Positions 1-20,612 of a DNA stretch of 64,000 bases are shown here, one piece after another. The position numbers were made by a program, and so were the translations under genes. The notes under the pieces were generated by a model. The model made no database searches, was not told the DNA's origin, and saw only the letters and a program-made list of their open reading frames with translations. Every line of letters begins with the position of its first letter. The first letter of the stretch is position 1. Source of the DNA: Escherichia coli (GTDB taxonomy: Bacteria; Pseudomonadota; Gammaproteobacteria; Enterobacterales; Enterobacteriaceae); assembly GCF_044324785.1 (NCBI RefSeq), contig NZ_CP172127.1. One strand, given 5' to 3'.

Positions 1-365
1 AGAAGCGTAGGGCGATAGGCAGTATTTTGAGAAAGCTGTGTGAGTGGAAAAGCGTACGGATTCTGGAAGCAGAGTGCTGCGCAGATCATATCCATATGCT
101 TGTGGAAATCCCACCCAAAATGAGCGTATCCGGCTTTATGGGATATCTGAAAGGGAAAAGCAGTCTGATGCTTTACGAGCAGTTTGGGGATTTGAAATTC
201 AAATACAGAAACAGGGAGTTCTGGTGCCGAGGGTACTATGTCGATACGGTGGGTAAGAACACGGCGAAGATACAGGACTACATAAAGCACCAGCTTGAAG
301 AGGATAAAATGGGGGAGCAGTTATCGATTCCATATCCGGGCAGCCCGTTTACGGGCCGTAAGTAA
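1..365 (+). CDS. tnpA: IS200 transposase TnpA (Y1/HUH family), 3' part; N-terminus lies outside the window
   Basis: ORF 27..365 is open to the window edge. Translation closely matches IS200 TnpA as I recall it, with an HUH motif (HIHMLVEIPP) and the tyrosine region (RGYYVDTVG). Confidence 0.85.
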   Translation, partial: KRRAIGSILRKLCEWKSVRILEAECCADHIHMLVEIPPKMSVSGFMGYLKGKSSLMLYEQFGDLKFKYRNREFWCRGYYVDTVGKNTAKIQDYIKHQLEEDKMGEQLSIPYPGSPFTGRK

Positions 366-441
366 CGAAGTTGAATGCAAATGTCAGATCGTATGCGCCT
401 GTTAGGGCGCGGCTGGTAACAGAGCCTTACAGGCGCATTTG
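1..441 (+). mobile_element. IS200 copy, right-hand portion; left end outside window, right boundary approximate
   Basis: Contains the tnpA 3' part and a subterminal inverted repeat around 388..434 (gcgcctgttagggc ... gccttacaggcgc). The exact end was not determined. Confidence 0.55.
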
Positions 442-465
442 AAAAACCTCCGGCTATGCCGGAGG
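442..465. terminator. Stem-loop at the IS200/ybiC junction; probable ybiC terminator
   Basis: Hairpin cctccggctatgccggagg; a TTTTT run follows it on the minus strand, about 10 bp after the ybiC stop. Confidence 0.45.
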
Positions 466-473
466 ATATTTAT

Positions 474-1694
<1,221 letters not shown>

Positions 1695-1699
1695 GAAAA

Positions 1700-2662
<963 letters not shown>

Positions 2663-2689
2663 TTACGACTCCTTACCTGACTCACATCA

Positions 2690-4840
2690 TTAACGCCGCC
2701 GACGGCGTGGGGATTTCGTTTTTTCTTTCTTTTTAACTATACCTTCAGGGACTTCCGGTTGCTCTATCGGAAATACCGGTAATGCATCCAGTAGCCGCTT
2801 GCCATAATTTTTGGTCAGCAAGCGTTTGTCGTAAATCACCACTTCGCCCCAGCAACCGTGGCTTCGAATCAGTCGCCCAACCTGCTGAATCAGGTTAAAC
2901 GAGGCGCTCGGCAGGCTTTGCACCTCAAACGGATAGCGGTTGAGGCTTTTCAGCCATTCTCCTTCGGTGATCACCACCGGGCTGTCGATGGGCGGAAAAG
3001 CGATTTTGTGGATATGCACCTGGCTGAGCAGATCGCCTTTCAAATCAAGCCCTTCGGCAAATGACTGCAAGCCCACCAGCACGCTACGCTCACCGTTGGC
3101 AACGCGTTTGCGGTGCAGTTCAACTAAACGGTAACGCGGCTGATCGCCCTGCACCAGCAACATCAGGCGTAAATCCGTCACATAGTCGAGAAACCGCTGC
3201 ATCGCCCGTCCGCTGGCAAACAGTACCAACATACCGAGATGTTTTTTGCTCTCCACCTGTTTACGGAAAAAGGCCGCCATTTCGGCAATGTGCTGCTCTT
3301 CGTTGTCGATGGAAGGCTCAACGCGCATCCGGGGAATAACAATTTTGCCCTGTTCGCAGTGGTTAAAGGGCGAATCCAGCGCCACAAAGCGGTCGCCCGC
3401 TTTCTCTTTCAGCCCGCTCATCTCCTGCAAACGCGAAAAACTGTTCAGCGAACGCAAGGTTGCGGAAGTGACAATAATGTGCGGAATACTGCGCCACAGC
3501 AGCCTTTCCAGCTGATCGCTGACACGAATACCCACGCAGTGAAACCAGAGATGCAGCTGCCCTTCGCGCTCTTCCCGCGTCGCCCATTTGGTCACCGGCG
3601 CACCGGAAGATTGCGCCAGAGACGCCAGCCGCCAGAGTTTGCTTTGCGCCTCGAACATCCCCAGCGCGCGGTTCATCTGCAAAATCAACCGATGCAGACG
3701 TACAATGTCATGGCTGCCGGTTTTCTCACTTAAATCGTTAAGAAATAACTCCGCCAGACCACGCAGCATCTCGGTGAGTTTTGCCAGCCGTTGGCAGATC
3801 TCCAGCACTTCATCAGGCAGTTCGCCCATCGCAAAACGGTGCTCTGCCTCCTGCCCGGCAGGCATGTAGAGGTTGAGAATGTTGTTTAACGAGGCGATAA
3901 GCTCATACAACTCTTCACAATGGGCATTCAAACGCTCGGGGATCGCCAGCGGAGGGATGGTCTTCGGGCGAAACTGCTCCATACAGGTAGCGACCAGTTT
4001 CGTGAACAAGTCCAGCTGTAGCCGATACCAGGGCGCGGTGATTTCGGCGCTCATCTCCAGCGCATCCCGTGCCACATCCGGCAGGTGATGACCTTCGTCC
4101 AGCACCAGCAGTAAATTTTTCGGGTCAGGCAATACGGCTTCGCTTTCCATCGCCGCCATCACCAGCGCATGGTTTGCCACTACAACTTCCGCTTCCTGAA
4201 TTTCCCGACGAGCGACAAAAAACGGGCATTCGCGATAGTAATAACAGTTGCGGTTGAGGCAGCTGGCTTTGTCGGTACTCAACCGACGCCAGAGATCATC
4301 ATCAATGGCGATATCCGTATGATCGCGCAGACCATCCCATTTATAAGTGTCGAGATCGCCCTTCAACTTTGCACAACGCTTTTGCTCTTCCTGATTGTTC
4401 GGCGTCAGCTCGTCGTCAAGAAACGCCAGCAGATCCTGTTGCGTGGGTTCAGTACTGGCAAGCGCTGTCAGATTACGCGGGCAAACGTAGCGCCCACGCC
4501 CAAAAGCGGCAGTGAATTTAAGATCGGGAATGATCTTTTTCAGCAATGGTAAATCTTTGCTGTAGATCTGATCCTGCAACGCCACGTTGGCGGTACTCAC
4601 CACCAACGTTTTTTGCTCTTCGCGGGCAATGGCGATGCCGGGAATCAAATAGGAGAGCGTTTTCCCAACGCCGGTGGGTGCTTCAATCGCCAGATGCCGC
4701 CCTTCTTCTCCGGCCAGCGTTTTGGCGACGTCCGCAATCATCTGCCGCTGCGGCGCACGGGGAATAAAGTCGGGGATCTGTTCCTGAAGCGCCTTATACC
4801 AGGCGGCAATTTGCGCTTTAAGCGCGGCGGTTAATGCCAT
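2690..4840 (-). CDS. dinG: ATP-dependent DNA helicase DinG
   Basis: 716-aa ORF with helicase motifs (GVGKT Walker A, DEGH box) and cysteine-containing region; a LexA box lies upstream. Confidence 0.95.
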   Translation of the reverse strand: MALTAALKAQIAAWYKALQEQIPDFIPRAPQRQMIADVAKTLAGEEGRHLAIEAPTGVGKTLSYLIPGIAIAREEQKTLVVSTANVALQDQIYSKDLPLLKKIIPDLKFTAAFGRGRYVCPRNLTALASTEPTQQDLLAFLDDELTPNNQEEQKRCAKLKGDLDTYKWDGLRDHTDIAIDDDLWRRLSTDKASCLNRNCYYYRECPFFVARREIQEAEVVVANHALVMAAMESEAVLPDPKNLLLVLDEGHHLPDVARDALEMSAEITAPWYRLQLDLFTKLVATCMEQFRPKTIPPLAIPERLNAHCEELYELIASLNNILNLYMPAGQEAEHRFAMGELPDEVLEICQRLAKLTEMLRGLAELFLNDLSEKTGSHDIVRLHRLILQMNRALGMFEAQSKLWRLASLAQSSGAPVTKWATREEREGQLHLWFHCVGIRVSDQLERLLWRSIPHIIVTSATLRSLNSFSRLQEMSGLKEKAGDRFVALDSPFNHCEQGKIVIPRMRVEPSIDNEEQHIAEMAAFFRKQVESKKHLGMLVLFASGRAMQRFLDYVTDLRLMLLVQGDQPRYRLVELHRKRVANGERSVLVGLQSFAEGLDLKGDLLSQVHIHKIAFPPIDSPVVITEGEWLKSLNRYPFEVQSLPSASFNLIQQVGRLIRSHGCWGEVVIYDKRLLTKNYGKRLLDALPVFPIEQPEVPEGIVKKKEKTKSPRRRRR

Positions 4841-4854
4841 GAGAAAACCTGAAA

Positions 4855-4874
4855 TACTGTATAAACAGCCAATA
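4855..4874 (-). promoter_or_regulatory. dinG SOS (LexA) box, non-canonical
   Basis: Minus strand reads tattggctgtttatacagta, which is the dinG LexA operator as I recall it, 15 bp upstream of the dinG ATG. Confidence 0.7.
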
Positions 4875-5010
4875 TTGTGGCATTTTTCGGTTTTCAGGGG
4901 TAATGGTTTTTCTGTTTCTGGAAAGCGGCTCGCAATAACGTTTTCTGGAAGTGAGATTTTCCCGCAGCAGAAGAAACATCATTGCGTAGTAAAAGACAAT
5001 GCACGCAGGC

Positions 5011-5292
5011 TTATTGCGCTGGTGGCCATTGCAGGGCGGTATGCAAAACACGCAGTACCGAGAGCGTATCGCCCTCCACTTGGTAGATCAGCACATAATG
5101 CGGTCTGACAACGGCTTCATGAGTGCCAGCGACTCGTCCGGCCCGATACATCTGCGGGCGTTCACAAACCTGTTCCGCAATGGCTTCAAATTGATTATCA
5201 AGGGCAATTGCCGCTTGCGGATTATCTTTACTGATGTATACCATGATTTGCTCCCTGTCAGACAGGGACATTGGCTTCCATTCCAGACGCAT
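5011..5292 (-). CDS. ParE/RelE-family type II toxin (ParE2-like)
   Basis: 93-aa ORF with ParE-like features (C-terminal ...LIYQVEGDTLSVLRVLHTA). Its ATG overlaps the upstream gene's stop as TAATG. Confidence 0.75.
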   Translation of the reverse strand: MRLEWKPMSLSDREQIMVYISKDNPQAAIALDNQFEAIAEQVCERPQMYRAGRVAGTHEAVVRPHYVLIYQVEGDTLSVLRVLHTALQWPPAQ

Positions 5293-5732
5293 TAATCCCC
5301 CTTCAACAAGGCTTTTTTACGGGCAGCAAATAGACTTTTGGCCTCTTCATGAGAGAGCGCTGGGCGTGGATCGTCAATGGCGGCCTGCACCTGCTCTCGA
5401 AACCAGGCATCATACGCGGCAGCTTCATGAGCTCGTTTTAATGCCTCTGCCCTGTCAGGTCGGGTCGTTTTCTTCTGACCATCCGGGTCGTAATTAGAGG
5501 CGTCGACTTCAAACCGGGCAATACCAACATCTTTCAGGTAGTTGACAACCGTTTCCAGCCGTTTGAACAGGCGGATTTGCCGACTGCGTTGTGCTGCAAG
5601 AGGCCGTTCAGTGTGGCCGTATTTCACGGTCAACGACCAGCCTCCCTGGGTGCCAATAACGTGTGCTGCATCCACTACGCCAGACTCAACCAGTTTATGT
5701 AAGGTTGAGTGATCGATCGTTTCTGGTGCCAT
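5292..5732 (-). CDS. Putative antitoxin: roughly 100-aa N-terminal domain of unknown function fused to a PaaA2/ParD-like C-terminal tail
   Basis: 146-aa ORF translationally coupled to the toxin. The C-terminal AYDAWFREQVQAAIDDPRPALSHEEAKSLFAARKK resembles the PaaA2-type ParE-neutralising motif as I remember it; I do not recognise the N-terminal domain. Confidence 0.55.
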   Translation of the reverse strand: MAPETIDHSTLHKLVESGVVDAAHVIGTQGGWSLTVKYGHTERPLAAQRSRQIRLFKRLETVVNYLKDVGIARFEVDASNYDPDGQKKTTRPDRAEALKRAHEAAAYDAWFREQVQAAIDDPRPALSHEEAKSLFAARKKALLKGD

Positions 5733-5760
5733 AATGCGCTAACCTCTTTGTATACAGCAT

Positions 5761-5824
5761 GCAATTTATAATTAAAGATAGCGCAATTAATAATTAAAGA
5801 TAGCGCAATTAATAATAAATTGCA
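5761..5824 (-). promoter_or_regulatory. Putative promoter/operator of the toxin-antitoxin operon: tandem 22-bp direct repeats carrying four AATTGC half-sites
   Basis: aattaaagatagcgcaattaat occurs twice in tandem, with a flanking GCAATT-N7-AATTGC palindrome, 30 to 90 bp upstream of the antitoxin start. Confidence 0.45.
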
Positions 5825-5909
5825 TTTTTTGATCGTAAATTGTCCAGGGTGAAATTGCGGTAGAAAGAGACTTGTTGCGAAGATGCCGGGCATCGCCCGG
5901 CATAAAAAG

Positions 5910-7271
5910 TTACTGCGCAGCGGCAGGTTTACGCGGACGGCGGCGACGTTGTTGTTCGCCTGCCGGTTTGGCATCGCCGAGACGACGAGACGGTTTTTCT
6001 GCAGGTTTTGCGCTTGCAGATTTTGCACCACCTTCAGCGCGGCGTGGTTGCTGTTGACCGCGACCACCGCCTTGTCCACGACCGCCGCCACGTTGCTGGC
6101 GACCATTCTGGATCGGTTCGGCTTTGATTGACGGGTCCGGCTCATAGCCCGGAATCGCAATGCGCGGGATCTCTTTTTTCAGCAGTTTTTCGATATCACG
6201 CAGCAGTTTGTGTTCATCCACACACACCAGCGATAACGCTTCACCGGTGGCTGCGGCACGACCGGTACGCCCGATACGGTGGACATAATCTTCCGGTACG
6301 TTTGGCAGTTCATAGTTGACCACGTGCGGCAGCTCTTCAATATCCAGGCCGCGCGCAGCGATGTCAGTTGCCACCAGTACACGAATATCGCCCGATTTAA
6401 AATCGGCCAGCGCACGGGTACGCGCACCTTGCGATTTATTACCGTGGATCGCCGCACTGCGGATGCCATCTTTATTGAGCTGTTCAGCCAGATGGTTAGC
6501 GCCATGTTTGGTACGGGTAAACACCAGCACCTGCTGCCAGTTCCCTTTCCCAATCATGTGCGACAGCAATTCGCGTTTGCGTTTCTTATCAACAAAGTGA
6601 ACATGCTGGGTCACCTGATCAGACGCGGTATTGCGGCGTGCCACTTCGATTTCCAGCGGGTTGTGCAGCAGTTTTTCCGCCAGGTTTTTAATATCGTCAG
6701 AGAAAGTGGCGGAGAACAACAGGTTCTGGCGCTTCGCTGGCAGCTTAGTCAACACACGACGGATATCGTGGATAAAGCCCATATCGAGCATGCGGTCAGC
6801 TTCATCGAGGACGAGAATTTCAACCTGATCCAGCTTCACTGCATTCTGATGTTCCAGGTCCAGCAAACGTCCCGGCGTTGCCACCAGCACATCAACGCCA
6901 CCGCGCAGCTTCATCATCTGCGGGTTGATGCTGACGCCACCAAACACCACCAGCGAACGAATGTTCAGGTATTTGCTGTAATCACGGACGTTTTCGCCAA
7001 TCTGCGCCGCCAGTTCACGGGTCGGGGTAAGAATGAGCGCACGTACCGGACGACGCCCTTTGGCGTGCGGCTGGCGAGTGATCAGGTGTTGCAACAGCGG
7101 CAGCGTAAAGCCCGCTGTTTTGCCGGTACCGGTCTGGGCACTGGCCATCAGGTCGCGGCCCTCCAGCACCGCAGGGATCGCCTGCTGCTGAATAGGGGTG
7201 GGTTCACGGTAACCCTGCTCGGCAACGGCGCGCAGGATATCAGGGCTTAAACCCAAAGAATCGAAAGACAT
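5910..7271 (-). CDS. rhlE: ATP-dependent RNA helicase RhlE (DEAD-box)
   Basis: 453-aa ORF with DEAD-box motifs ([23 protein letters not shown]) and an Arg/Gly-rich C-terminal tail. Confidence 0.95.
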
Positions 7272-7464
7272 AACTACTCCGAACCGCCCCGACCGTTACC
7301 GGTGTAGTTTTCAGGGAGATACTGAAAAGGAAAATGACAAAAACCACAATGTCATGAGGGAGCGGAGTGTAGCAGTTTTTGTGACGCAGCGCATAAATTA
7401 TCCCTGTGACTGGCGTAGCTAAAATTCTTAGCCATACTGGACAACTCCCCTATGGAGTCATAAT

Positions 7465-7486
7465 CTTAATCAATCATTTGATTAAG
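7465..7486. promoter_or_regulatory. Palindrome in the rhlE-cecR divergent region; candidate CecR (TetR-family) operator
   Basis: cttaatcaa-tcat-ttgattaag, with perfect 9-bp arms, 17 bp upstream of the cecR start. Confidence 0.4.
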
Positions 7487-7502
7487 AATGGACTGTGTGA
7501 TG

Positions 7503-10890
<3,388 letters not shown>

Positions 10891-10898
<8 letters not shown>

Positions 10899-12024
10899 TC
10901 CGATCCTGTCCTGGCGTCGCGTGCGGGCACTGTGCGTCAAAGAGACGCGGCAGATCGTTCGCGATCCGAGTAGCTGGCTGATTGCGGTGGTGATCCCGCT
11001 GCTACTGCTGTTTATTTTTGGTTACGGCATTAACCTCGACTCCAGCAAGCTGCGGGTCGGGATTTTACTGGAACAGCGTAGCGAAGCGGCGCTGGATTTC
11101 ACCCACACCATGACCGGTTCGCCCTACATCGACGCCACCATCAGCGATAACCGTCAGGAATTGATCGCCAAAATGCAGGCAGGGAAAATTCGCGGTCTGG
11201 TGGTTATTCCCGTGGATTTCGCCGAACAGATGGAGCGCGCCAACGCCACCGCACCGATTCAGGTGATCACCGACGGCAGTGAGCCGAATACCGCTAACTT
11301 TGTGCAGGGGTATGTCGAAGGGATCTGGCAGATCTGGCAAATGCAGCGGGCGGAGGATAACGGGCAGACTTTTGAGCCGCTTATTGATGTACAAACCCGC
11401 TACTGGTTTAACCCGGCGGCAATAAGCCAGCACTTTATTATCCCCGGTGCGGTGACCATTATCATGACGGTCATCGGCGCGATCCTCACCTCGCTGGTGG
11501 TGGCGCGAGAATGGGAACGCGGCACCATGGAGGCTCTGCTCTCTACGGAGATTACCCGCACGGAACTGCTGCTGTGTAAGCTGATCCCTTATTACTTTCT
11601 CGGGATGCTGGCGATGTTGCTGTGTATGCTGGTGTCAGTGTTTATTCTCGGCGTACCGTATCGCGGTTCGCTGCTGATTCTGTTTTTTATCTCCAGCCTG
11701 TTTTTACTCAGTACCCTGGGGATGGGGCTGCTGATTTCCACGATAACCCGCAACCAGTTCAATGCCGCTCAGGTCGCTCTGAACGCGGCTTTTCTGCCGT
11801 CGATTATGCTTTCCGGCTTTATTTTTCAAATCGACAGTATGCCCGCGGTGATCCGCGCGGTGACGTACATTATTCCCGCTCGTTATTTCGTCAGCACCCT
11901 GCAAAGCCTGTTCCTCGCCGGGAATATTCCAGTGGTGCTGGTGGTAAACGTGCTGTTTTTGATCGCTTCGGCGGTGATGTTTATCGGCCTGACGTGGCTG
12001 AAAACCAAACGTCGGCTGGATTAG
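10891..12024 (+). CDS. ybhS: ABC-2 family permease YbhS
   Basis: ORF 10885..12024, polytopic membrane protein; synteny. Confidence 0.9.
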
Positions 12025-12034
12025 GGAGAAGAGC

Positions 12035-13141
12035 ATGTTTCATCGCTTATGGACGTTAATCCGCAAAGAGTTGCAGTCGCTGCTGCGCGAACCGCAAACC
12101 CGTGCGATTCTGATTTTACCCGTGCTGATTCAGGTGATCCTGTTCCCGTTCGCCGCCACGCTGGAAGTGACTAACGCCACCATCGCCATCTACGATGAAG
12201 ATAACGGCGAGCACTCGGTAGAACTTACTCAACGTTTTGCCCGCGCCAGCGCCTTTACCCATGTGCTGCTACTGAAAAGCCCGCAGGAGATCCGCCCGAC
12301 CATCGACACGCAAAAGGCGTTACTACTGGTACGTTTCCCGGCTGACTTCTCGCGCAAACTGGATACCTTCCAGACCGCGCCGTTGCAGTTGATCCTCGAC
12401 GGGCGTAACTCCAACAGTGCGCAAATTGCCGCTAACTACCTGCAACAGATCGTCAAAAATTATCAGCAGGAGCTGCTGGAAGGAAAACCGAAACCCAACA
12501 ACAGCGAGCTGGTAGTACGCAACTGGTATAACCCGAATCTCGACTACAAATGGTTTGTGGTGCCGTCGCTGATCGCCATGATCACCACTATCGGCGTAAT
12601 GATCGTCACTTCACTTTCTGTCGCCCGCGAACGTGAACAAGGTACGCTCGATCAGTTACTGGTCTCACCGCTCACTACCTGGCAGATCTTCATCGGCAAA
12701 GCCGTACCGGCATTAATTGTCGCCACCTTCCAGGCCACCATTGTGCTGGCGATTGGTATCTGGGCGTATCAAATCCCCTTCGCCGGATCGCTGGCGCTGT
12801 TCTACTTTACGATGGTGATTTACGGTTTATCGCTGGTGGGATTCGGTCTGTTGATTTCATCACTCTGCTCGACACAACAGCAGGCGTTTATCGGCGTGTT
12901 TGTTTTTATGATGCCCGCCATTCTCCTTTCCGGTTACGTTTCTCCGGTGGAAAACATGCCAGTATGGCTGCAAAACCTGACGTGGATTAACCCTATTCGC
13001 CACTTTACGGACATTACCAAGCAGATTTATTTGAAGGATGCGAGTCTGGATATTGTGTGGAATAGTTTGTGGCCGCTACTGGTGATAACGGCCACGACAG
13101 GGTCAGCGGCGTACGCGATGTTTAGACGTAAGGTGATGTAA
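12035..13141 (+). CDS. ybhR: ABC-2 family permease YbhR
   Basis: 368-aa membrane protein ORF; synteny. Confidence 0.9.
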
Positions 13142-13513
13142 CTTCTTATCTTTCGCCAGCAAAGACACTACCGCCGGGCCGGCAAGGATTGCCAGCCCTG
13201 CAATTGCCAGCAAAAAGTTGTTTTCCAGTACGCGGGACAACAGCCACAGCACAATCAGCGCTGCGCCAAAATACCAGGTCGTAGTCAGCTCTTCCAGCAC
13301 GTCTGCCACCTCACGCCAGCGTTGCTCGGGGTGGCGCTGAAACACCAGCATCATCACTACCGTGACACAATACAGTGCGCATAATCCCACGCCGACGTGA
13401 ACCAGAGTCTTACTCATCCAGCCCACCACCAGCAGCGCCACTACCAGTAAATGCAACATAATCTGCCAGCAACTTAGACCCGTTGCGACACGAACACGTT
13501 GTTGCCACTTCAT
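13103..13513 (-). CDS. ybhQ: Inner membrane protein YbhQ
   Basis: 136-aa hydrophobic ORF convergent with ybhR; synteny. Confidence 0.85.
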
Positions 13514-13645
13514 GGCTTCTCTCCTGAAGAATTTATCTCTACTTACTCAGAGTACCGAACTTTACGGAAAATTCCGTAAGACCGCACCTTTTTGTGACGC
13601 CGACTACACTATTTCAATGAGATAAGAGGCAAAGACAGGAAAATT

Positions 13646-14407
13646 ATGCCCGATCAAACACAACAATTTTCGTTCAAGGTGCTCACCATCAATATTCACA
13701 AAGGCTTTACCGCGTTTAACCGACGCTTCATTTTGCCGGAACTTCGCGACGCCGTGCGTACCGTCAGCGCCGATATTGTTTGCCTGCAGGAAGTGATGGG
13801 CGCGCACGAAGTTCATCCGCTGCATGTGGAAAACTGGCCCGATACTTCGCACTACGAGTTTCTCGCCGACACTATGTGGAGCGATTTTGCCTATGGTCGC
13901 AATGCCGTATACCCGGAAGGGCATCACGGTAACGCGGTTCTTTCACGTTATCCCATTGAACATTATGAGAATCGTGATGTTTCGGTCGATGGTGCGGAAA
14001 AGCGCGGCGTGCTCTACTGCCGCATTGTGCCGCCGATGACCGGGAAAGCGATTCATGTGATGTGTGTACATCTGGGCCTGCGTGAGGCGCACCGTCAGGC
14101 GCAGCTTGCGATGCTCGCCGAATGGGTGAATGAGCTGCCGGACGGCGAACCGGTATTGGTGGCGGGTGATTTCAACGACTGGCGGCAAAAAGCTAATCAT
14201 CCGTTAAAAGTGCAGGCCGGGCTGGATGAGATATTTACCCGCGCCCACGGACGCCCGGCGCGCACGTTTCCGGTGCAATTTCCTCTACTACGACTGGACA
14301 GGATCTACGTCAAAAATGCCAGCGCCAGCGCGCCAACCGCGTTGCCGCTGCGGACATGGCGACACCTTTCTGATCATGCCCCTTTAAGTGCGGAGATTCA
14401 TTTATGA
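13646..14407 (+). CDS. ybhP: Endonuclease/exonuclease/phosphatase-family protein YbhP
   Basis: 253-aa ORF; stop overlaps the clsB start (ATGA). Confidence 0.9.
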
Positions 14408-15645
14408 AATGTAGCTGGCGCGAAGGCAATAAGATCCAGTTGCTGGAAAACGGCGAGCAATATTATCCCGCGGTGTTTAAGGCGATTGGCGAGGCACAAG
14501 AACGCATCATTCTTGAAACGTTTATCTGGTTTGAGGATGACGTCGGCAAACAGCTGCATGCGGCGCTACTGGCAGCAGCGCAACGCGGGGTAAAAGCGGA
14601 AGTCTTGCTGGATGGCTACGGTTCGCCGGATCTCAGCGATGAGTTTGTCAATGAACTGACGGCAGCTGGCGTGGTGTTCCGCTACTACGATCCCCGCCCT
14701 CGCCTTTTTGGTATGCGCACCAATGTGTTTCGCCGGATGCATCGCAAAATTGTGGTGATCGACGCGCGTATTGCCTTTATTGGCGGGTTGAACTACTCCG
14801 CCGAGCATATGTCCAGCTACGGTCCGGAGGCTAAACAGGATTACGCGGTACGCCTCGAAGGGCCGATTGTCGAAGATATTCTCCAGTTTGAGCTGGAAAA
14901 CTTGCCAGGACAAAGCGCGGCACGACGCTGGTGGCGACGTCATCATAAAGCGGAAGAAAATCGCCAGCCGGGAGAAGCGCAGGTATTGCTGGTCTGGCGC
15001 GATAACGAAGAACATCGCGATGATATCGAACGCCACTATCTGAAAATGCTCACTCAGGCGCGGCGGGAAGTGATTATCGCCAACGCCTACTTCTTCCCCG
15101 GCTATCGATTTTTACACGCCTTGCGTAAAGCGGCACGGCGCGGGGTGCGGATCAAACTGATCATTCAGGGCGAACCGGATATGCCGATTGTCAGAGTCGG
15201 TGCACGCTTGCTGTATAACTATCTGGTTAAAGGCGGCGTTCAGGTGTTTGAGTACCGCCGCCGTCCGCTACATGGCAAAGTGGCATTGATGGACGATCAC
15301 TGGGCGACGGTAGGGTCCAGTAATCTCGATCCGCTCAGTTTGTCACTGAATCTCGAAGCAAATGTCATCATCCACGATCGTCATTTTAACCAGACGCTGC
15401 GTGATAATCTGAACGGCATTATCGCCGCAGACTGCCAGCAGGTGGATGAAACCATGCTGCCCAAACGCACCTGGTGGAATCTGACCAAAAGCGTGCTGGC
15501 GTTCCACTTTTTACGCCACTTCCCGGCGCTGGTCGGCTGGCTTCCGGCACACACACCACGTCTGGCGCAGGTTGACCCGCCCGCTCAGCCGACAATGGAA
15601 ACGCAGGATCGGGTAGAAACTGAAAACACGGGGGTAAAACCCTGA
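14404..15645 (+). CDS. clsB: Cardiolipin synthase B (phospholipase D family)
   Basis: 413-aa ORF with two HxK(x4)D motifs ([17 protein letters not shown]). Confidence 0.9.
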
Positions 15646-16601
15646 TGAGTAAATCACACCCGCGCTGGCGCTTAGCAAAGAAGATCCTCACCTGGCTGTT
15701 TTTTATCGCGGTGATTGTGTTGCTGGTGGTCTACGCCAAAAAGGTGGACTGGGAAGAGGTCTGGAAGGTCATCCGCGACTACAATCGCGTTGCGCTGCTT
15801 AGTGCGGTCGGGCTGGTGGTCGTCAGTTATCTGATTTACGGCTGCTATGACCTGCTCGCCCGCTTTTACTGCGGTCACAAACTGGCGAAGCGCCAGGTGA
15901 TGCTGGTGTCGTTTATCTGCTACGCCTTCAACCTGACGCTCAGTACCTGGGTCGGCGGCATTGGTATGCGCTATCGTTTGTACTCCCGGCTAGGGTTACC
16001 GGGCAGCACCATTACGCGGATTTTCTCGCTGAGTATTACCACCAACTGGCTGGGCTATATTTTACTGGCGGGGATTATCTTTACCGCGGGCGTGGTGGAG
16101 CTGCCGGATCACTGGTATGTCGATCAAACTACACTGCGTATTCTCGGCATTGGCTTATTGATGATTATCGCGGTTTATTTGTGGTTTTGCGCTTTCGCGA
16201 AGCACCGCCATATGACCATCAAAGGGCAAAAACTGGTGCTGCCTTCATGGAAATTTGCCCTCGCCCAGATGCTGATTTCCAGCGTTAACTGGATGGTAAT
16301 GGGAGCGATTATCTGGCTGTTACTCGGTCAAAGCGTAAACTATTTCTTTGTACTGGGTGTGTTGCTGGTTAGTAGCATTGCTGGCGTCATCGTGCATATT
16401 CCGGCGGGAATTGGTGTGCTGGAAGCGGTATTTATCGCGCTACTGGCTGGGGAGCATACCTCCAAAGGCACAATTATCGCCGCCCTGCTCGCTTACCGTG
16501 TGCTGTATTACTTTATCCCACTGCTGCTGGCGCTGATCTGTTACCTGCTACTGGAAAGTCAGGCGAAGAAGCTACGGGCGAAAAATGAAGCGGCGATGTG
16601 A
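15645..16601 (+). CDS. ybhN: Inner membrane protein YbhN (lysylphosphatidylglycerol synthase-like TM region)
   Basis: 318-aa polytopic ORF; start overlaps the clsB stop. Confidence 0.9.
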   Translation: MSKSHPRWRLAKKILTWLFFIAVIVLLVVYAKKVDWEEVWKVIRDYNRVALLSAVGLVVVSYLIYGCYDLLARFYCGHKLAKRQVMLVSFICYAFNLTLSTWVGGIGMRYRLYSRLGLPGSTITRIFSLSITTNWLGYILLAGIIFTAGVVELPDHWYVDQTTLRILGIGLLMIIAVYLWFCAFAKHRHMTIKGQKLVLPSWKFALAQMLISSVNWMVMGAIIWLLLGQSVNYFFVLGVLLVSSIAGVIVHIPAGIGVLEAVFIALLAGEHTSKGTIIAALLAYRVLYYFIPLLLALICYLLLESQAKKLRAKNEAAM

Positions 16602-16636
16602 AGTTTAGTTAAGTTCTTTAGTATGTGCATTTACGA

Positions 16637-17047
16637 CTAATGAAAAAAACGCGTATGCCTTTGCCAGACAAGCGTTATCGCTATTGCTGCAAGAATCCCA
16701 AAGAAGCCGATAAAATAGTAATAGAGTGTTAATGCACCTGTAACAGCGCAACGAACCGGACTCCACAATTCTTCGCTATGGCATTTTCCTGCCAGTTCAA
16801 GGAGCTTATTTCGTCCATGCGAGATAATGCCTGACCATAAAACAATCATTAAGCAACTTATTACCCAAATGGGCCGTTCACTCATTAATGCGGCATTCAC
16901 GATGATCACCAGGGCCAACCCTGTCAACGTCATCATAATGATAAAACGGTGAGAACCAGGATCAACATTAAATAATAAACCGGCCAGCATACTGATTAAA
17001 AACATCGCGCCCGCAGTGCTGAACACAAGGATAATGGCAGATACAGG
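16637..17047 (-). pseudogene. ybhM: ybhM C-terminal fragment (BAX inhibitor-1 family), separated from its 5' half by an IS insertion
   Basis: ORF 16637..17086 encodes the C-terminal portion of a BI-1-like membrane protein; its first ~11 codons read out of the IS end. Confidence 0.7.
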
Positions 17048-17089
17048 AAGTGACTGCTCCCCGTCCTGTCGGGCGAGGCTTCCCACTTC

Positions 17090-18259
17090 TTAAGCCGCAA
17101 CCGTCTGTGTGACGGATTTATGCTGGCCTCCATGGGCAGAAACGACGAGTCCCGCCGCTTGTAATTCCAGTATGCCCTTGCGTTTGATGTTGAGCGCCGC
17201 GTTGATATCGCGGTCATGTTCAACTCCACACTCTGGACACTGCCAGATGCGCTTACGTAATGGCATCTCCGACATTTTGTGACCGCAGCAGTGGCAGGTT
17301 TTCGAACTGGCGAACCATTGATCCAGTTTCACCAGATGCACACCTTTCTCTGCTGCTTTATATTCCAGTTTTGTGATGAATCCAGACCATCCAGCATCGC
17401 CTATCGCACGAGCCAGATGGTGATTTTTCATCATATTTGCCGTTTTCAATTTCTCGACAATTACCGCTTGGTTTTCGTCAACAATTGCGCGAGATAACTT
17501 GTGCTGGAAATCGGCACGGGCACTGGCTACCCGTTCGTGAACGGCTGCAAGTTGTATTCTGGCTTTGCGCCTGTTTGCGCTCCCTTTTTTCTTACGGGAC
17601 AGTGCTTTCTGCTTCCGGCGCAGGTTGCGACTTGCATTGATTAGGTGGCGGGGACTGGCAATTTTATTGCCGTCCGATTTGATGACAAAATGCGCCAGCC
17701 CCATATCCAGCCCTGTCACATTTGATATCAGTGCGGGCTTTGCCGGCGCTTCCATCCCGTCGTCACAGAGTAACGACGCGTAGTATTTCCCGGTTGCGCT
17801 GCGGCTCAACGTGATACTTTTCAGCATTCCCGTAATTTCACGATGTAAACGCGCTTCAATCGGCAAGATTTTCGGTATTTTTATCGCACCATCAAGGACT
17901 TTTATGCCAACACAATGATAGCTCGATTGTCTGCCGTGTTTACTTTTAAAGGTAGGTTTACCTGCTTTCAGTTTCGGATTGAAAAAGTTAGAAAAAGCCA
18001 CGTCGAGGTTAATTACCGCCTGCTGCAACGCAATAGAATCATATTCTTTAAGCCATCCATACCGGCGGGATTTCTTCGCCACTGCAAGCAGTGGTTTGAG
18101 GTCTTTACGCGGGTTTAAATTTACGCGGTGCCGCTGGTAAGAATGTTTCTTGATATGCAGAGCTTTGTTGTACGCAAAACGCACTGCACCGAACTGGGCG
18201 TTGATAAATTCAGCCTGTTCTGGTGTCGGGTAGATGCGTACTTTTGTTGCTCTTAACAT
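17090..18259 (-). CDS. tnpB: TnpB (IS605 OrfB family; RuvC-like RNA-guided endonuclease)
   Basis: 389-aa ORF with RuvC-I (GLDMGL), RuvC-II (VIVEKL), a CxxC...CxxC zinc finger (CHCCGH ... CPECG) and RuvC-III (HDRDINAALNI). Confidence 0.9.
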   Translation of the reverse strand: MLRATKVRIYPTPEQAEFINAQFGAVRFAYNKALHIKKHSYQRHRVNLNPRKDLKPLLAVAKKSRRYGWLKEYDSIALQQAVINLDVAFSNFFNPKLKAGKPTFKSKHGRQSSYHCVGIKVLDGAIKIPKILPIEARLHREITGMLKSITLSRSATGKYYASLLCDDGMEAPAKPALISNVTGLDMGLAHFVIKSDGNKIASPRHLINASRNLRRKQKALSRKKKGSANRRKARIQLAAVHERVASARADFQHKLSRAIVDENQAVIVEKLKTANMMKNHHLARAIGDAGWSGFITKLEYKAAEKGVHLVKLDQWFASSKTCHCCGHKMSEMPLRKRIWQCPECGVEHDRDINAALNIKRKGILELQAAGLVVSAHGGQHKSVTQTVAA

Positions 18260-18315
18260 AATCAGCGCTCATTGATATAATGCTTTTATTTTAACACTTT
18301 AGGTGAATATATCAA

Positions 18316-18741
18316 TTGAGTAATCATGATGATTTACTGGCGGGATTTCTCCGCAAACGACACAGTGTCAGTAAGCTGGTTGTGCACCTTATTTTTACGA
18401 CAAAGTATCGACGCAAACTATTCGACAGTCAGATGATCGCTCAGTTGCGTGAGGCTTTTGGCTCCGCTGCGGCAAAGCTTGAATGCGAAATTATTGAGAT
18501 GGACGGGGAGCCAGACCATGTACACCTGCTGGTGGCCTACCCGCCAAAACTGGCGGTCAGTGTGATGGTCAATAATTTAAAATCGGTATCATCACGTTTG
18601 CTACGCCAGCAGAACGCGCATTTACGTATGCAGAGTAAAACGGGGCTTTTGTGGTCGAGATCGTACTTTGTCTGTAGCACCGGAGGGGCAACGATTGAAA
18701 CGCTCAGAGCCTACGTTCAGAGTCAGTCAACACCTGATTGA
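18316..18741 (+). CDS. tnpA: IS200/IS605-family Y1 transposase TnpA
   Basis: 141-aa ORF with an HUH motif (HVHLLV) and a catalytic-Tyr region (SRSYFVCSTGG); divergent from tnpB. Confidence 0.9.
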   Translation: MSNHDDLLAGFLRKRHSVSKLVVHLIFTTKYRRKLFDSQMIAQLREAFGSAAAKLECEIIEMDGEPDHVHLLVAYPPKLAVSVMVNNLKSVSSRLLRQQNAHLRMQSKTGLLWSRSYFVCSTGGATIETLRAYVQSQSTPD

Positions 18742-18813
18742 TCTTTAAAGCCCTGCGGGCTTTTCGCCTTATATCCCCGCCCGCATTGGGCGAGGGTTTA
18801 CGGCGTTTTTCGC

Positions 18814-19113
18814 TAAACTTGCAACGACAATCGCCACCAAAGAGAGTAAAAACAGATATATTACGCCTGCGATGGCGGCATTTATCTTGTTGATATCCTT
18901 ACTTAAGCCATACATACAAAGTAATAATAACCCTATGGCGACATACATTGGTGGTGAATCATATTTGGTTGCCGTAATTTCGAGATACTTAGCTCCCCAG
19001 GCCAGTCCTGCGGTTGCCACCAAACCTAAAGCGGTAATGAGCCATATACCGTTTAATATCCTGGCCTCGTGCTGAAAATCTAATTTATTGCTGTTTTGCG
19101 AGTATGATTCCAT
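18814..19113 (-). pseudogene. ybhM: ybhM N-terminal fragment (BAX inhibitor-1 family), truncated by the IS insertion
   Basis: ORF 18769..19140; BI-1-like N-terminus from MESYSQNSNK to ...VVASL, then 14 IS-derived codons and a stop. Confidence 0.7.
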
Positions 19114-19274
19114 TCTTTTAGTTGTCCTTAGAAAAAACATTAATATTTACCATCAATAAATTTAAAGCCACGCATACAAAATACTTTTTTATTTATGGAT
19201 ACGGAAAACGCTTCCGCTCGCTCATAAGGCATATTTTATACCTGGTACTTGTTAAGTGTCGTTTTTTCGTAAGA

Positions 19275-19300
19275 AAAAATCCCGACACATGGCCGGGATA
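19275..19300 (-). terminator. Rho-independent terminator downstream of ybhL
   Basis: Minus strand reads atcccggccatgtgtcgggatttttt. Confidence 0.5.
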
Positions 19301-19318
19301 TTGATGGTGAAAAAAGAA

Positions 19319-20023
19319 TTAACGGCGGTTGCCGAAGATCCGCAGCAACATCAGGAACAGGTTGATGAAGTCCAGATACAAGGTTAACGCGCCAAGAATG
19401 GAATATTTGCGCAGGTTCGACGTGTCGCGGGTATCAATCTGCTCACCCATATTTTTCAGTTTCTGCGTGTCATACGCCGTCAATCCGACAAAGACAATCA
19501 CGCCGATGTAGGTGACTGCCCACATCAATGCTTCGCTTTTCAGCCAGAAGTTGACCAACGATGCCAGCACAATGCCGATTAACGCCATAAACAGCATATT
19601 GCCAAAGCCGCTTAGATCGCGCTTCGTGGTGTAACCGTACAGGCTCATTGCGCCAAACATCCCGGCAGTAACGACGAAAGTACTGGCGATAGAAGCAGCG
19701 GTATAGACAATGAAAATACTGGAAAGCGTAAGACCCGTCAGCGCCGAATAAAGCATAAAGAGCATCGTCGTCACACCTGCGCTCAGCTTTTGAATCATCG
19801 CTGATAACACAATAACCAATGCTAATTGCGCGATGATCAGACCGATTAAAAAGACACGGTTAGTGAACAACAGCTCCATCACGGCCGCGGAATTAGCCGC
19901 ATACCAGGCAACAAATGCGGTCAGCAACAAGCCAACGGTCATCCAGCCATAGACTTGCGCCATATAAGTTTGCAAGCCAGCCCGGGGTTGTACAATTGAA
20001 TCAGAACGTGGGAATCTGTCCAT
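19319..20023 (-). CDS. ybhL: BAX inhibitor-1 family inner membrane protein YbhL
   Basis: ORF 19319..20104; start trimmed to MDRFPRSD (about 234 aa). Confidence 0.85.
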   Translation of the reverse strand: MDRFPRSDSIVQPRAGLQTYMAQVYGWMTVGLLLTAFVAWYAANSAAVMELLFTNRVFLIGLIIAQLALVIVLSAMIQKLSAGVTTMLFMLYSALTGLTLSSIFIVYTAASIASTFVVTAGMFGAMSLYGYTTKRDLSGFGNMLFMALIGIVLASLVNFWLKSEALMWAVTYIGVIVFVGLTAYDTQKLKNMGEQIDTRDTSNLRKYSILGALTLYLDFINLFLMLLRIFGNRR

Positions 20024-20119
20024 GATGATCTCCTGAAGATATAAGGAATATCTTAAGGATACTGCAAAATGATGAGGCTGTGCATCGACGCAGCGTAAAC
20101 GCATGTACTGAGCGGTGAA

Positions 20120-20150
20120 ATTGCCGGACGCAGCGGTGCCTTATCCGGCT
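20120..20150. repeat. REP-like palindromic unit
   Basis: gccggacgcagcggtgccttatccggc resembles the E. coli REP consensus; lies between ybhL and moaE. Confidence 0.4.
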
Positions 20151-20159
20151 AACAAAAAA

Positions 20160-20612
20160 CTACCAGCGTTTTGCCGCCTGCTGATCGCTCTCCCGAGCTT
20201 CAACCCAGCGGTCGCCTTCCGGCGTGGCTTCACGCTTCCAGAACGGTGCGCGGGTTTTGAGATAATCCATAATAAACTGCCCGGCTTCAAACGCACTGCT
20301 GCGATGCGCACTGGTGACACCGACAAAAACGATTTCATCTCCCGGCCATAATTCCCCGATGCGGTGAATCACCGTGACGCGCCCCAGCGGCCAGCGGTTA
20401 CGCGCTTCATCGACAATTTCTGCCAGTGCTTTTTCAGTCATCCCCGGATAGTGTTCGAGGGTTAATGCTTTGACGCTGTCGCCAAGGTTATGGTTGCGCA
20501 CCTTACCGGTAAAGGTGACTACCGCACCGTCTTCATCACGCTCCGCCAGCCACGGATACTCTTCTCCTACGCTGAATGGCTGCGGGCCGACAACAATTTT
20601 GGTTTCTGCCAT
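20160..20612 (-). CDS. moaE: Molybdopterin synthase catalytic subunit MoaE
   Basis: 150-aa ORF, last gene of moaABCDE. Confidence 0.95.
   Translation of the reverse strand: MAETKIVVGPQPFSVGEEYPWLAERDEDGAVVTFTGKVRNHNLGDSVKALTLEHYPGMTEKALAEIVDEARNRWPLGRVTVIHRIGELWPGDEIVFVGVTSAHRSSAFEAGQFIMDYLKTRAPFWKREATPEGDRWVEARESDQQAAKRW

Follow-up and report, generated by a model that had tools for sequence, protein, structure and literature searches.

An ISEc46 insertion behind a TTAG motif splits ybhM next to an intact ybhL in Escherichia coli

The window, a 64-kb stretch of E. coli DNA, carries two neighboring genes whose products match the BI-1/YccA family (TMBIM, Pfam Bax1-I), which in E. coli also includes YccA. 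One of them, ybhL, is full length, as the sequence-only reading had described it. The other, ybhM, is interrupted by a complete insertion sequence after nucleotide 301, in codon 101 of 237 (Table 1). No further gene follows ybhM in its direction; it converges on ybhN, and ybhL lies upstream of it. The division of ybhM into two fragments by an IS had been recognized from the sequence at the right coordinates, and the fragments are colinear with intact ybhM.

Table 1. Features of the interrupted ybhM locus (positions in the window)
Feature	Position	Strand	Remarks
ybhM, whole gene	ATG 19113 to stop 16637..16639	-	broken by 1763 bp at 17050..18812
ybhM 3' fragment, last two bases of codon 101 to codon 237 plus stop	16637..17049	-	Bax1-I profile 95-205/207
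Predicted TnpB omega-RNA guide segment, 20 nt of ybhM abutting RE	17030..17049	-	expected from the family mechanism (PMC8612924, PMC10055086)
ISEc46, IS200/IS605 family, 1763 bp, complete	17050..18812	-	LE at 18812, RE at 17050; same direction as ybhM
RE subterminal hairpin CCTCGCCC-GACA-GGACGGGG	17059..17078	-	G>A at 17064, column elsewhere invariant
tnpB, 389 aa, intact, predicted RNA-guided endonuclease	17090..18259	-	Pfam HTH_OrfB_IS605, OrfB_IS605, Cas12f1-like_TNB
Divergent promoter-like sites, tnpA-tnpB spacer	18253..18281; 18315..18288	+; -	11/12 and 10/12 matches, respectively; consensus matches only
tnpA, 141 aa, intact Y1 (HUH) transposase	18316..18741	+	Pfam Y1_Tnp 133.4 bits (cut-off 23)
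LE subterminal hairpin CCTCGCCC-AATGC-GGGCGGGG	18775..18795	-	LE fold -19.4 kcal/mol, z = -3.8
Target motif 5'-TTAG-3' directly 5' of LE	18813..18816	-	belongs to ybhM itself, from the end of codon 100 to base 1 of codon 101
ybhM 5' fragment, codons 1-100 plus base 1 of codon 101	18813..19113	-	Bax1-I profile 3-87
Terminator-like hairpin after ybhL, dividing the ybhL and ybhM transcription units	19279..19299	-	8 pairs, 5 G-C, then T-run
ybhL, 234 aa, intact	19319..20023	-	Bax1-I 212 bits, profile 1-207/207

The insert is 99.1–99.7% identical, across all 1763 bp, to copies annotated in RefSeq as ISEc46; we take the name from the annotation "ISEc46 family transposase" given there to tnpA in the matching copies. 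A literature search for ISEc46 returned only mobile-element listings within genome surveys. The boundaries of the element are the same at seven independent sites, namely ybhM, an iclR-like gene, oppD, the ptrB-yebE interval, an Arm-domain gene, the ybhL-moaE interval and a prophage. TTAG precedes LE at all seven, and the right end is constant (...CAGTCAC). Membership in the IS200/IS605 family is supported by a Y1 TnpA, subterminal hairpins and a fixed motif, together with the lack of terminal inverted repeats and of a target duplication. The top strand of the element lies on the G-rich strand (GC skew of the + strand is negative), which corresponds to the lagging-strand template, as expected for the family.

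Both proteins of the element retain their characteristic motifs. TnpA, which is identical to that of L002 and of WP_000064874-type copies, also matches NCBIfam transpos_IS200 at 141.3 bits (cut-off 55). Its HUH motif, here HVH, lies at residue 68, and RAYVQ contains the C-terminal tyrosine. TnpB scores 341 bits against NCBIfam guided_TnpB (cut-off 100) and aligns to the ISDra2 TnpB structures with E = 6e-75, with conservation of the RuvC segments GLDMG, IVEKL and HDRDINAA; the D-E-D triad is intact, and the CxxC..CxxC zinc-finger motif is kept. The element is full length and, as far as can be read from its sequence, apparently functional.

In its ends, hairpins and TTAG target, the element in the window resembles known ISEc46 copies, from which it differs by an insertion site absent from 5,426 complete E. 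coli genomes and by four substitutions that are private to its lineage when compared with eight other copies: G>A at 17064 in RE, and T270K, H335R and R380H in TnpB. Across the copies, the RE hairpin reads CCTCGCCC-GACA-GG(G/A)CGGGG, with A in the lineage of the window and G elsewhere, and the fold of RE in the window is weaker than that of the consensus RE (−8.1 vs −11.1 kcal/mol). The change at 17064 could impair excision or the omega-RNA. The stronger proposal, that it immobilizes the element, was dropped as unproven: a prophage in another genome carries an identical copy, and at least one past move of this variant is therefore probable.

The junctions were compared by BLAST with the intact ybhM of strain AST215. 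Window positions 16501–17049 correspond to bases 1602–2150 of the AST215 locus and positions 18813–19300 to bases 2151–2639. The flanks thus adjoin at 2150|2151 with zero bases deleted or duplicated, and ybhM::ISEc46 has no target duplication. When 17050..18812 is removed in silico, a 237-aa YbhM reading frame results, of which residues 101–237 map to the 3' fragment by tblastn. It differs from the annotated YbhM by 8 residues in AST215 and by 3 in strain N3. Against Bax1-I, this rejoined protein reaches 74.6 bits (cut-off 34.1; residues 19–222, profile 3–205 of 207). Since excision in silico gives the full 237-aa Bax1-I protein, the IS is the sole lesion in ybhM. Taken singly, the 3' fragment scores 52.1 bits, whereas the 26.7 bits of the 5' fragment fall short of the cut-off; the two match complementary halves of the profile, and neither holds a complete Bax1-I domain. 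They are not unrelated reading frames but halves of one gene. No second ybhM copy lies within the 64-kb window, and across complete E. coli genomes the gene is nearly always single-copy (a median of one place per genome and at most two). The ISEc46 insertion inactivates ybhM, which is ordinary gene loss. With a seamless reconstitution and an intact ybhL, the locus represents a natural loss of one of two neighboring BI-1-family genes, as the sequence-only reading had proposed.

The allele recurs in public data. The truncated 114-aa 5' product is found, exactly, in 62 blocks of a public assembly collection; among its carriers are two large contigs (4.9 Mb, in GCA_964055045.1, and 5.7 Mb) and one metagenome contig with 0.8% divergence. 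Two carriers (L011 and L019) show 100% identity with the window across 7.2–7.3 kb, and further similar places exist. In every carrier examined, the ybhM halves still rejoin to a 237-aa reading frame. An exact look-up of the rejoined YbhM of the window found no record. The version rejoined from the metagenome carrier L021, which bears V203F, is on record once as an uninterrupted gene, on a metagenome contig; this contig was considered as a close sister with an empty site and ruled out, its flanks being only 96.9% identical. The insertion is present in 0 of 5,426 complete RefSeq E. coli genomes, and its exact junction has 0 matches among GTDB species-representative genomes. The nearest complete genomes, those of strain N3 and of O166:H15 strains, reach no more than 98.4% identity across 24.8 kb.

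This distribution bears on two other origins of the allele. An IS copy might have been misplaced into ybhM during assembly, and in a related assembly (L012) the IS is indeed bordered by a ptrB flank on one side and the 3' flank of ybhM on the other, a hybrid that possibly reflects a misjoin across the repeat. However, both junctions recur in many independent assemblies, the two megabase-scale contigs and the metagenome contig among them, and they fit the ISEc46 TTAG rule exactly. An allele indexed in about 60 public assembly blocks is lineage-inherited, and an assembly artifact is effectively refuted. Alternatively, ISEc46 might have inserted repeatedly and independently at a TTAG hotspot in ybhM. 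The element is specific for TTAG, an independent insertion of ISEc46 in AST215 lies at a distance of 1.1 kb, in the ybhL-moaE interval, and L021 differs from the window at 8 IS positions and by 0.8% in the flanks. Yet position and orientation are the same across all carriers, the insertion is absent from the complete genomes surveyed, and three of the four private substitutions, the RE G>A among them, recur in L021, which points to common descent of one insertion. We therefore consider repeated insertion a decidedly unlikely alternative to a single ancestral event.

Insertion has left two open reading frames at ybhM. The 5' frame encodes 114 aa, of which the 14 that follow codon 100 are IS-derived (AKNAVNPRPMRAGI), with a stop at 18769. 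The 3' frame encodes 149 aa from GTG 17086, comprising 12 IS codons and one hybrid codon ahead of native ybhM sequence and the native stop. The earlier description of both fragments as ending in IS codons thus holds for the 5' fragment, whereas the 3' fragment begins with them. The 3' frame is co-directional with tnpB and shares its reading frame, and its GTG lies one codon past the tnpB TAA. A terminator scan found no convincing terminator between tnpB and the 3' fragment; a weak terminator-like hairpin inside ybhM (17028..17005) was set aside as being at chance level (4 sites found vs 3.2 expected). Expression of the 3' fragment from promoters of the IS, as the sequence-only reading had suggested, is therefore plausible at the transcript level.

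One could envisage from this arrangement a functional rewiring, in which the 149-aa 3' fragment (TM4–TM7) or the 114-aa 5' fragment is made as an active or dominant-negative half-protein. The co-directional, in-frame position behind tnpB, without a strong terminator between, would be compatible with it, as would the ybhM promoter and start that are still present for the 5' fragment. However, direct reading of the sequence revealed no Shine-Dalgarno-like sequence at a workable distance from GTG 17086, a match of frames is expected by chance one time in three, processing into omega-RNA is the expected fate of transcripts crossing RE, and each half holds only part of the Bax1-I domain. We judge such a rewiring, by outward transcription from ISEc46 or translational coupling to tnpB, very unlikely.

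The most probable course of events is the insertion of ISEc46 3' of TTAG at ybhM nucleotide 301 by single-strand "peel-and-paste", which very probably abolished YbhM. It would divide a predicted 7-TM protein near the boundary of the third and fourth membrane helices; a Kyte-Doolittle scan places hydrophobic blocks at residues 19–41, 74–129, 132–179 and 205–231 and does not separate single helices. Effects on neighboring genes are expected to be minimal because nothing follows ybhM before the convergent ybhN, and because ybhL, on the upstream side, has a terminator of its own.

In ISDra2, IS608 and the IS605-family elements of Geobacillus, as in ISEc46, a Y1 transposase is combined with a TnpB with an aligned RuvC triad, and no target duplication is made. 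ISEc46 also follows the ISDra2/IS608 paradigm in its position 3' of a short motif, which is predicted to double as the TAM of TnpB, and in a conserved block at the 3' end of tnpB and RE, where the omega-RNA scaffold is expected. It differs in the motif itself, which is TTAG rather than TTGAT (ISDra2) or TTAC (IS608), and in its divergent, IS605-like tnpA/tnpB layout, the two genes being co-directional in the comparison systems.

The established mechanism of IS200/IS605 elements includes a scarless donor joint, a shared TAM and TnpB-driven retention (PMC10055086, PMC8612924). By analogy, TnpA could excise ISEc46 scarlessly and restore ybhM, and since excision in this family is scarless, the loss is reversible in principle. 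The omega-RNA guide would consist of the adjoining ybhM bases 17049..17030 (TTCCTGTATCTGCCATTATC), a sequence that occurs once in the window. TnpB would then cut the restored donor joint of TTAG and guide, which would favor re-copying of the IS and stabilize the knockout, so that reversion is probably counteracted by TnpB and its guide RNA. Relatives with only ~80% identity over tnpB show hardly any variation in the final ~125 nt of the gene plus RE, which fits an overlapping constraint by omega-RNA and RE. In an alignment of six relatives, that block varies too little for covariation and contained no compensatory changes, the z-score of the fold of the omega-RNA region is only −1.6, and an Rfam search of 16000..20500 at a permissive E-value gave no match on the IS and one chance-level snoRNA in the ybhL-moaE spacer.

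Among carriers up to ~0.8% apart, neither ybhM half has acquired a disabling mutation. This has a bearing on the suggestion that ybhM::ISEc46 is a long-lived, reversible ON/OFF state and not a dead pseudogene, with TnpB and omega-RNA setting the rate of reversion. If true, this would make a selfish element the guarded genetic switch of a membrane protein of the BI-1 family; we regard this as highly improbable.

Although YbhM shares the Bax1-I match with YbhL, it is the divergent member of the pair (74.6 vs 212 bits), far less conserved and often lost. BLASTP aligns the two with 25% identity over 151 aa (E = 3e-12). The description of ybhL as a paralog of ybhM accordingly stands at the level of the family and not as a close relationship; from this alignment, the paralogy is distant and ancient, and at only 25% identity functional redundancy is not implied. 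The rejoined YbhM has no PDB sequence match at E ≤ 1 and no NCBIfam family. Literature searches yielded incidental mentions only and no functional study for ybhM, and nothing for ybhL together with yccA. YbhL is identical in amino-acid sequence to that of five other E. coli strains, and in the same strain pairs YbhM shows 3–8 changes.

A contiguous copy of ybhM is kept by 4788 of the 5426 complete E. coli genomes (88%), as compared with 5424 (99.96%) for ybhL; ~12% are without contiguous ybhM. Null alleles in genomes that retain ybhL include an IS1F insertion at about nt 172–182 (CUVET19-2242), a near-total deletion associated with IS1B, with 57 bp left (CUWW10), and an in-frame deletion of 324 bp with a 129-aa product (T-HYM1 and many others). 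These are either irreversible, as deletions, or accompanied by a target duplication, as with IS1, whereas the ISEc46 allele keeps both halves and could revert precisely. Several independent lesions, one of them a common allele, and the maintenance of the ISEc46 allele across backgrounds ~0.8% apart might indicate that loss of ybhM is adaptive and positively selected, here and in other losing lineages. Recurrent loss is, however, equally expected under relaxed constraint. YbhM varies more than YbhL, the large majority of genomes still keep the gene, and the literature holds no ybhM phenotype. Adaptive loss is therefore unlikely in our view, and neutral or near-neutral loss of a dispensable, weakly constrained paralog is the most likely explanation.

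The population context distinguishes the two neighbors: with ybhL near-universal and identical in six strains, and ybhM broken or missing in ~12% of genomes, YbhL appears as the constrained BI-1 homolog and YbhM as expendable. The biological weight of the event is small, as a catalogued IS disrupts a poorly characterized, dispensable gene. The locus is nonetheless a clean natural example of the ISEc46 TTAG target rule, and ybhM::ISEc46 offers a chromosomal donor site at which excision by TnpA and retention driven by TnpB could be measured through the restoration of ybhM.

The ybhM region lies in a block conserved in E. coli, with clsB-ybhN on the plus strand and ybhM-ybhL-moaEDCBA on the minus strand. 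A minus-strand ORF beginning at 19113 (MESYSQ...) runs for 100 native codons before entering foreign sequence and stopping at 18769; a second minus-strand ORF (17086..16637) terminates at the native ybhM stop. Comparison by BLAST with a strain carrying intact ybhM (AST215, locus L001) placed window pieces 16501-17049 and 18813-19300 on adjoining reference bases 2150|2151, which limits the insert to 17050..18812 (1763 bp). The target is not duplicated, and all host bases are kept. The insertion point follows nucleotide 301, within codon 101, in a long hydrophobic stretch (residues 74-129). In silico removal of the insert gives a 237-aa ORF with 8 residue differences from the annotated YbhM of AST215 and 3 from that of strain N3; it matches Pfam Bax1-I over residues 19-222 with 74.6 bits (cut-off 34.1). 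Since the rejoined ORF is intact and the fragments match complementary halves of the Bax1-I profile, the IS is the only lesion in ybhM, and the pieces represent two halves of a single gene rather than unrelated ORFs, the outcome that would have undone the sequence-only reading. Its claim that an IS inactivates ybhM holds: the insertion physically separates the gene into two halves, each with an incomplete domain.

Along its entire length, the insert shares 99.1-99.7% identity with RefSeq-annotated copies of ISEc46 (IS200/IS605 family). A full-length ISEc46 occurs in some 455 of the 5,426 complete E. coli genomes, mostly as a single copy. The divergent tnpA and tnpB both lie between the ybhM fragments. 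The TnpA sequence matches that of other copies exactly, and TnpB has three residue differences; the RuvC motifs and zinc finger of TnpB are conserved, and its alignment with ISDra2 TnpB structures spans the full length (E = 6e-75). At all seven independent insertion sites (ybhM, an iclR-like gene, oppD, ptrB-yebE, an Arm-domain gene, ybhL-moaE and a prophage), 5'-TTAG directly precedes the left end (LE; 18812 here). All copies terminate in ...CAGTCAC, and the subterminal hairpin stem CCTCGCCC/GGGCGGGG is common to LE and the right end (RE; 17050). The window element bears every defining mark of the family, namely the TTAG target, the constant end, the hairpins and TnpA/TnpB. Its top strand is the window minus strand, so that tnpB is co-directional with ybhM; the negative GC skew of the plus strand places that top strand on the lagging-strand template, reportedly the orientation expected for the family.

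Features of the window and ybhM lesions in other genomes
Feature	Location	Strand	Description
tnpA	18316..18741	+	Y1 transposase, 141 aa; domain match
tnpB	18259..17090	-	389 aa; domain match
ybhL	19319..20023	-	234-aa protein; Bax1-I over full profile, 212 bits
PaaA2-like antitoxin / ParE toxin ORFs	5292..5732 and 5011..5292	-	Pfam PaaA2 40.9 bits, ParE_toxin 51.7 bits
ybhM lesion, CUVET19-2242	L018 1201-2691		IS1F insertion near nt 172-182; complete E. coli genome
ybhM lesion, CUWW10	L017 1788-2557		IS1B-associated near-total deletion, 57 bp left; complete E. coli genome
ybhM lesion, T-HYM1	L016 1501-1890		Common 324-bp in-frame deletion, 129-aa product; complete E. coli genome

The window's lineage carries a G>A change at 17064 in the RE hairpin, in an otherwise invariant column, and the predicted stem is weaker. 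GCA_048598525.1 (L010 2444-4210) contains a copy of ISEc46 that matches the window's at 100% identity, RE G>A included. It follows ATTAG in a lambdoid-type prophage, with hok/gef and rusA/Q on either side, and the presence of this identical copy in another genome's prophage suggests that the variant remains mobile.

None of the 5,426 complete RefSeq E. coli genomes, the closest of which are 98.4% identical to the window over 24.8 kb, has an IS at this ybhM site, and the ybhM/ISEc46 junction was not found in GTDB species representatives. AST215, the single record covering the whole query, has its ISEc46 between ybhL and moaE instead; this independent insertion (L001 3487-5253; target GTTAG, same orientation) lies some 1.1 kb away from the site in ybhM. 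An exact-protein look-up with the window's TnpB variant returned a contig that matches 7,170 bp of the window without a difference, as well as 20 similar places, and the 114-aa shortened YbhM product occurs in 62 blocks of the public assembly collection, among them a 4.9-Mb contig, a 5.7-Mb contig and one from a metagenome. The same allele in so many assemblies excludes an assembly artefact. The metagenome carrier (L021) shows 0.8% divergence from the window in the flanks and 8 differences within the IS, and has three of the four substitutions otherwise private to the window's IS; this pattern fits a single, rather old insertion passed down within a clade better than repeated hits. Removal of the IS restores a 237-aa ORF in every carrier examined, which says little about selection because the 714 bp contain no more than about 3 differences. 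In GCA_040038515.1 (L012 2444-4210), a hybrid ISEc46 copy joins the LE flank of the common ptrB-yebE site to the ybhM 3' fragment at RE. It reflects either IS-IS recombination, with the junction arranged as in a duplication, or a mis-join made by the assembler at the repeat; in both cases, this genome has the two copies.

In the IS200/IS605 family, TnpA excises the top strand and the rejoined flanks form a scarless "donor joint", while the TnpB omega-RNA derives from the 3' end of tnpB plus RE, with a guide taken from the flank (PMC10055086, PMC8612924). By this mechanism, the donor joint at the window site would be intact ybhM. The predicted guide is flank 17049..17030, TTCCTGTATCTGCCATTATC, unique in the window; cutting at TTAG plus guide, TnpB would target precisely the restored ybhM, and repair would use the IS-bearing sister copy. 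Because TnpA excision would be scarless and the TnpB cut would force IS-templated repair, we infer that the knockout is reversible in principle, yet actively guarded. E. coli plasmids (L024-L027) carry tnpB-only ISEc46 relatives without tnpA and LE, one of them frameshifted, adjoining psiA, DUF1380 and antirestriction genes. The final ~125 nt of tnpB together with RE (window 17050-17175, minus strand; columns ~97-221 of alignment A1) are near-invariant, synonymous positions included, among plasmid-borne relatives that are only ~80% identical over tnpB; the window copy departs at one invariant column, 17064. This pattern suggests an overlapping omega-RNA/RE constraint on the tnpB 3' end. The alignment of relatives over tnpB 3'/RE yielded no countable covariation, and an Rfam scan gave no match within the element. 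That a TnpB-guarded reversible switch operates on ybhM is improbable. The same ybhM::ISEc46 allele occurs on a 5.68-Mb contig (GCA_053151395.1, L022 4355-6301) with an IS1 nested in tnpB; there TnpB is broken and the ISEc46 insertion is retained nonetheless.

The tnpA-tnpB spacer contains strong divergent promoter-like sites. As tnpB reads toward the 3' fragment of ybhM and the intervening sequence lacks a convincing terminator, read-through RNA into this fragment, as proposed earlier, is plausible. The 3' ORF is in the tnpB frame and its GTG (17086) lies one codon past the tnpB TAA, which makes termination-reinitiation conceivable; however, a usable ribosome-binding site is not apparent, the shared frame has a one-in-three likelihood of arising by chance, and only TM4-TM7 would be made. 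The 5' fragment still has the promoter and start of ybhM, from which a 114-aa product could be made.

Elsewhere, the window starts within an IS200/IS605-family tnpA (1-365), as judged by colinearity with strain N3 (99.6% identity; L014 494-952), so that a second, unrelated IS200-type element lies at the window edge. The dinG-rhlE interval (4936-5909) holds a two-gene PaaA2-like antitoxin/ParE toxin pair with overlapping stop and start; in strain N3, espX2 and a hypothetical gene (4.3 kb) occupy this interval. Identity to strain N3 changes across the dinG/rhlE junction from 99.6% (1-4935) to ~98% (5910-20369), suggesting a recombination mosaic in this region.

The neighboring ybhL is full length, as the sequence-only reading had stated, and its protein is identical to that of five other strains, with 5-14 silent nucleotide differences. 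The insertion cannot be polar on ybhL, because ybhL lies upstream of ybhM and is followed by a terminator-like hairpin (19299..19279). The proposed paralogy stands at the family level (25% identity over 151 aa, E = 3e-12), but recent duplication does not. Contiguous ybhM, defined as at least 80% coverage in one place, occurs in 4,788 of the 5,426 complete genomes (88%; ~12% without), an upper bound because the search tool's joining rule bridges IS1-sized insertions, versus 5,424 for ybhL (0.04% without). Over the same strain pairs, YbhM shows 3-8 amino-acid changes and YbhL none. Given these counts, the other lesions and the amino-acid changes, ybhM behaves as a gene under weak constraint that is often lost, and ybhL behaves like a core gene. 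The insertion is of an already known kind, a catalogued IS in a catalogued gene with a disruption typical of the family and no departure from it, and the ISEc46 allele is another case of recurrent ybhM loss.
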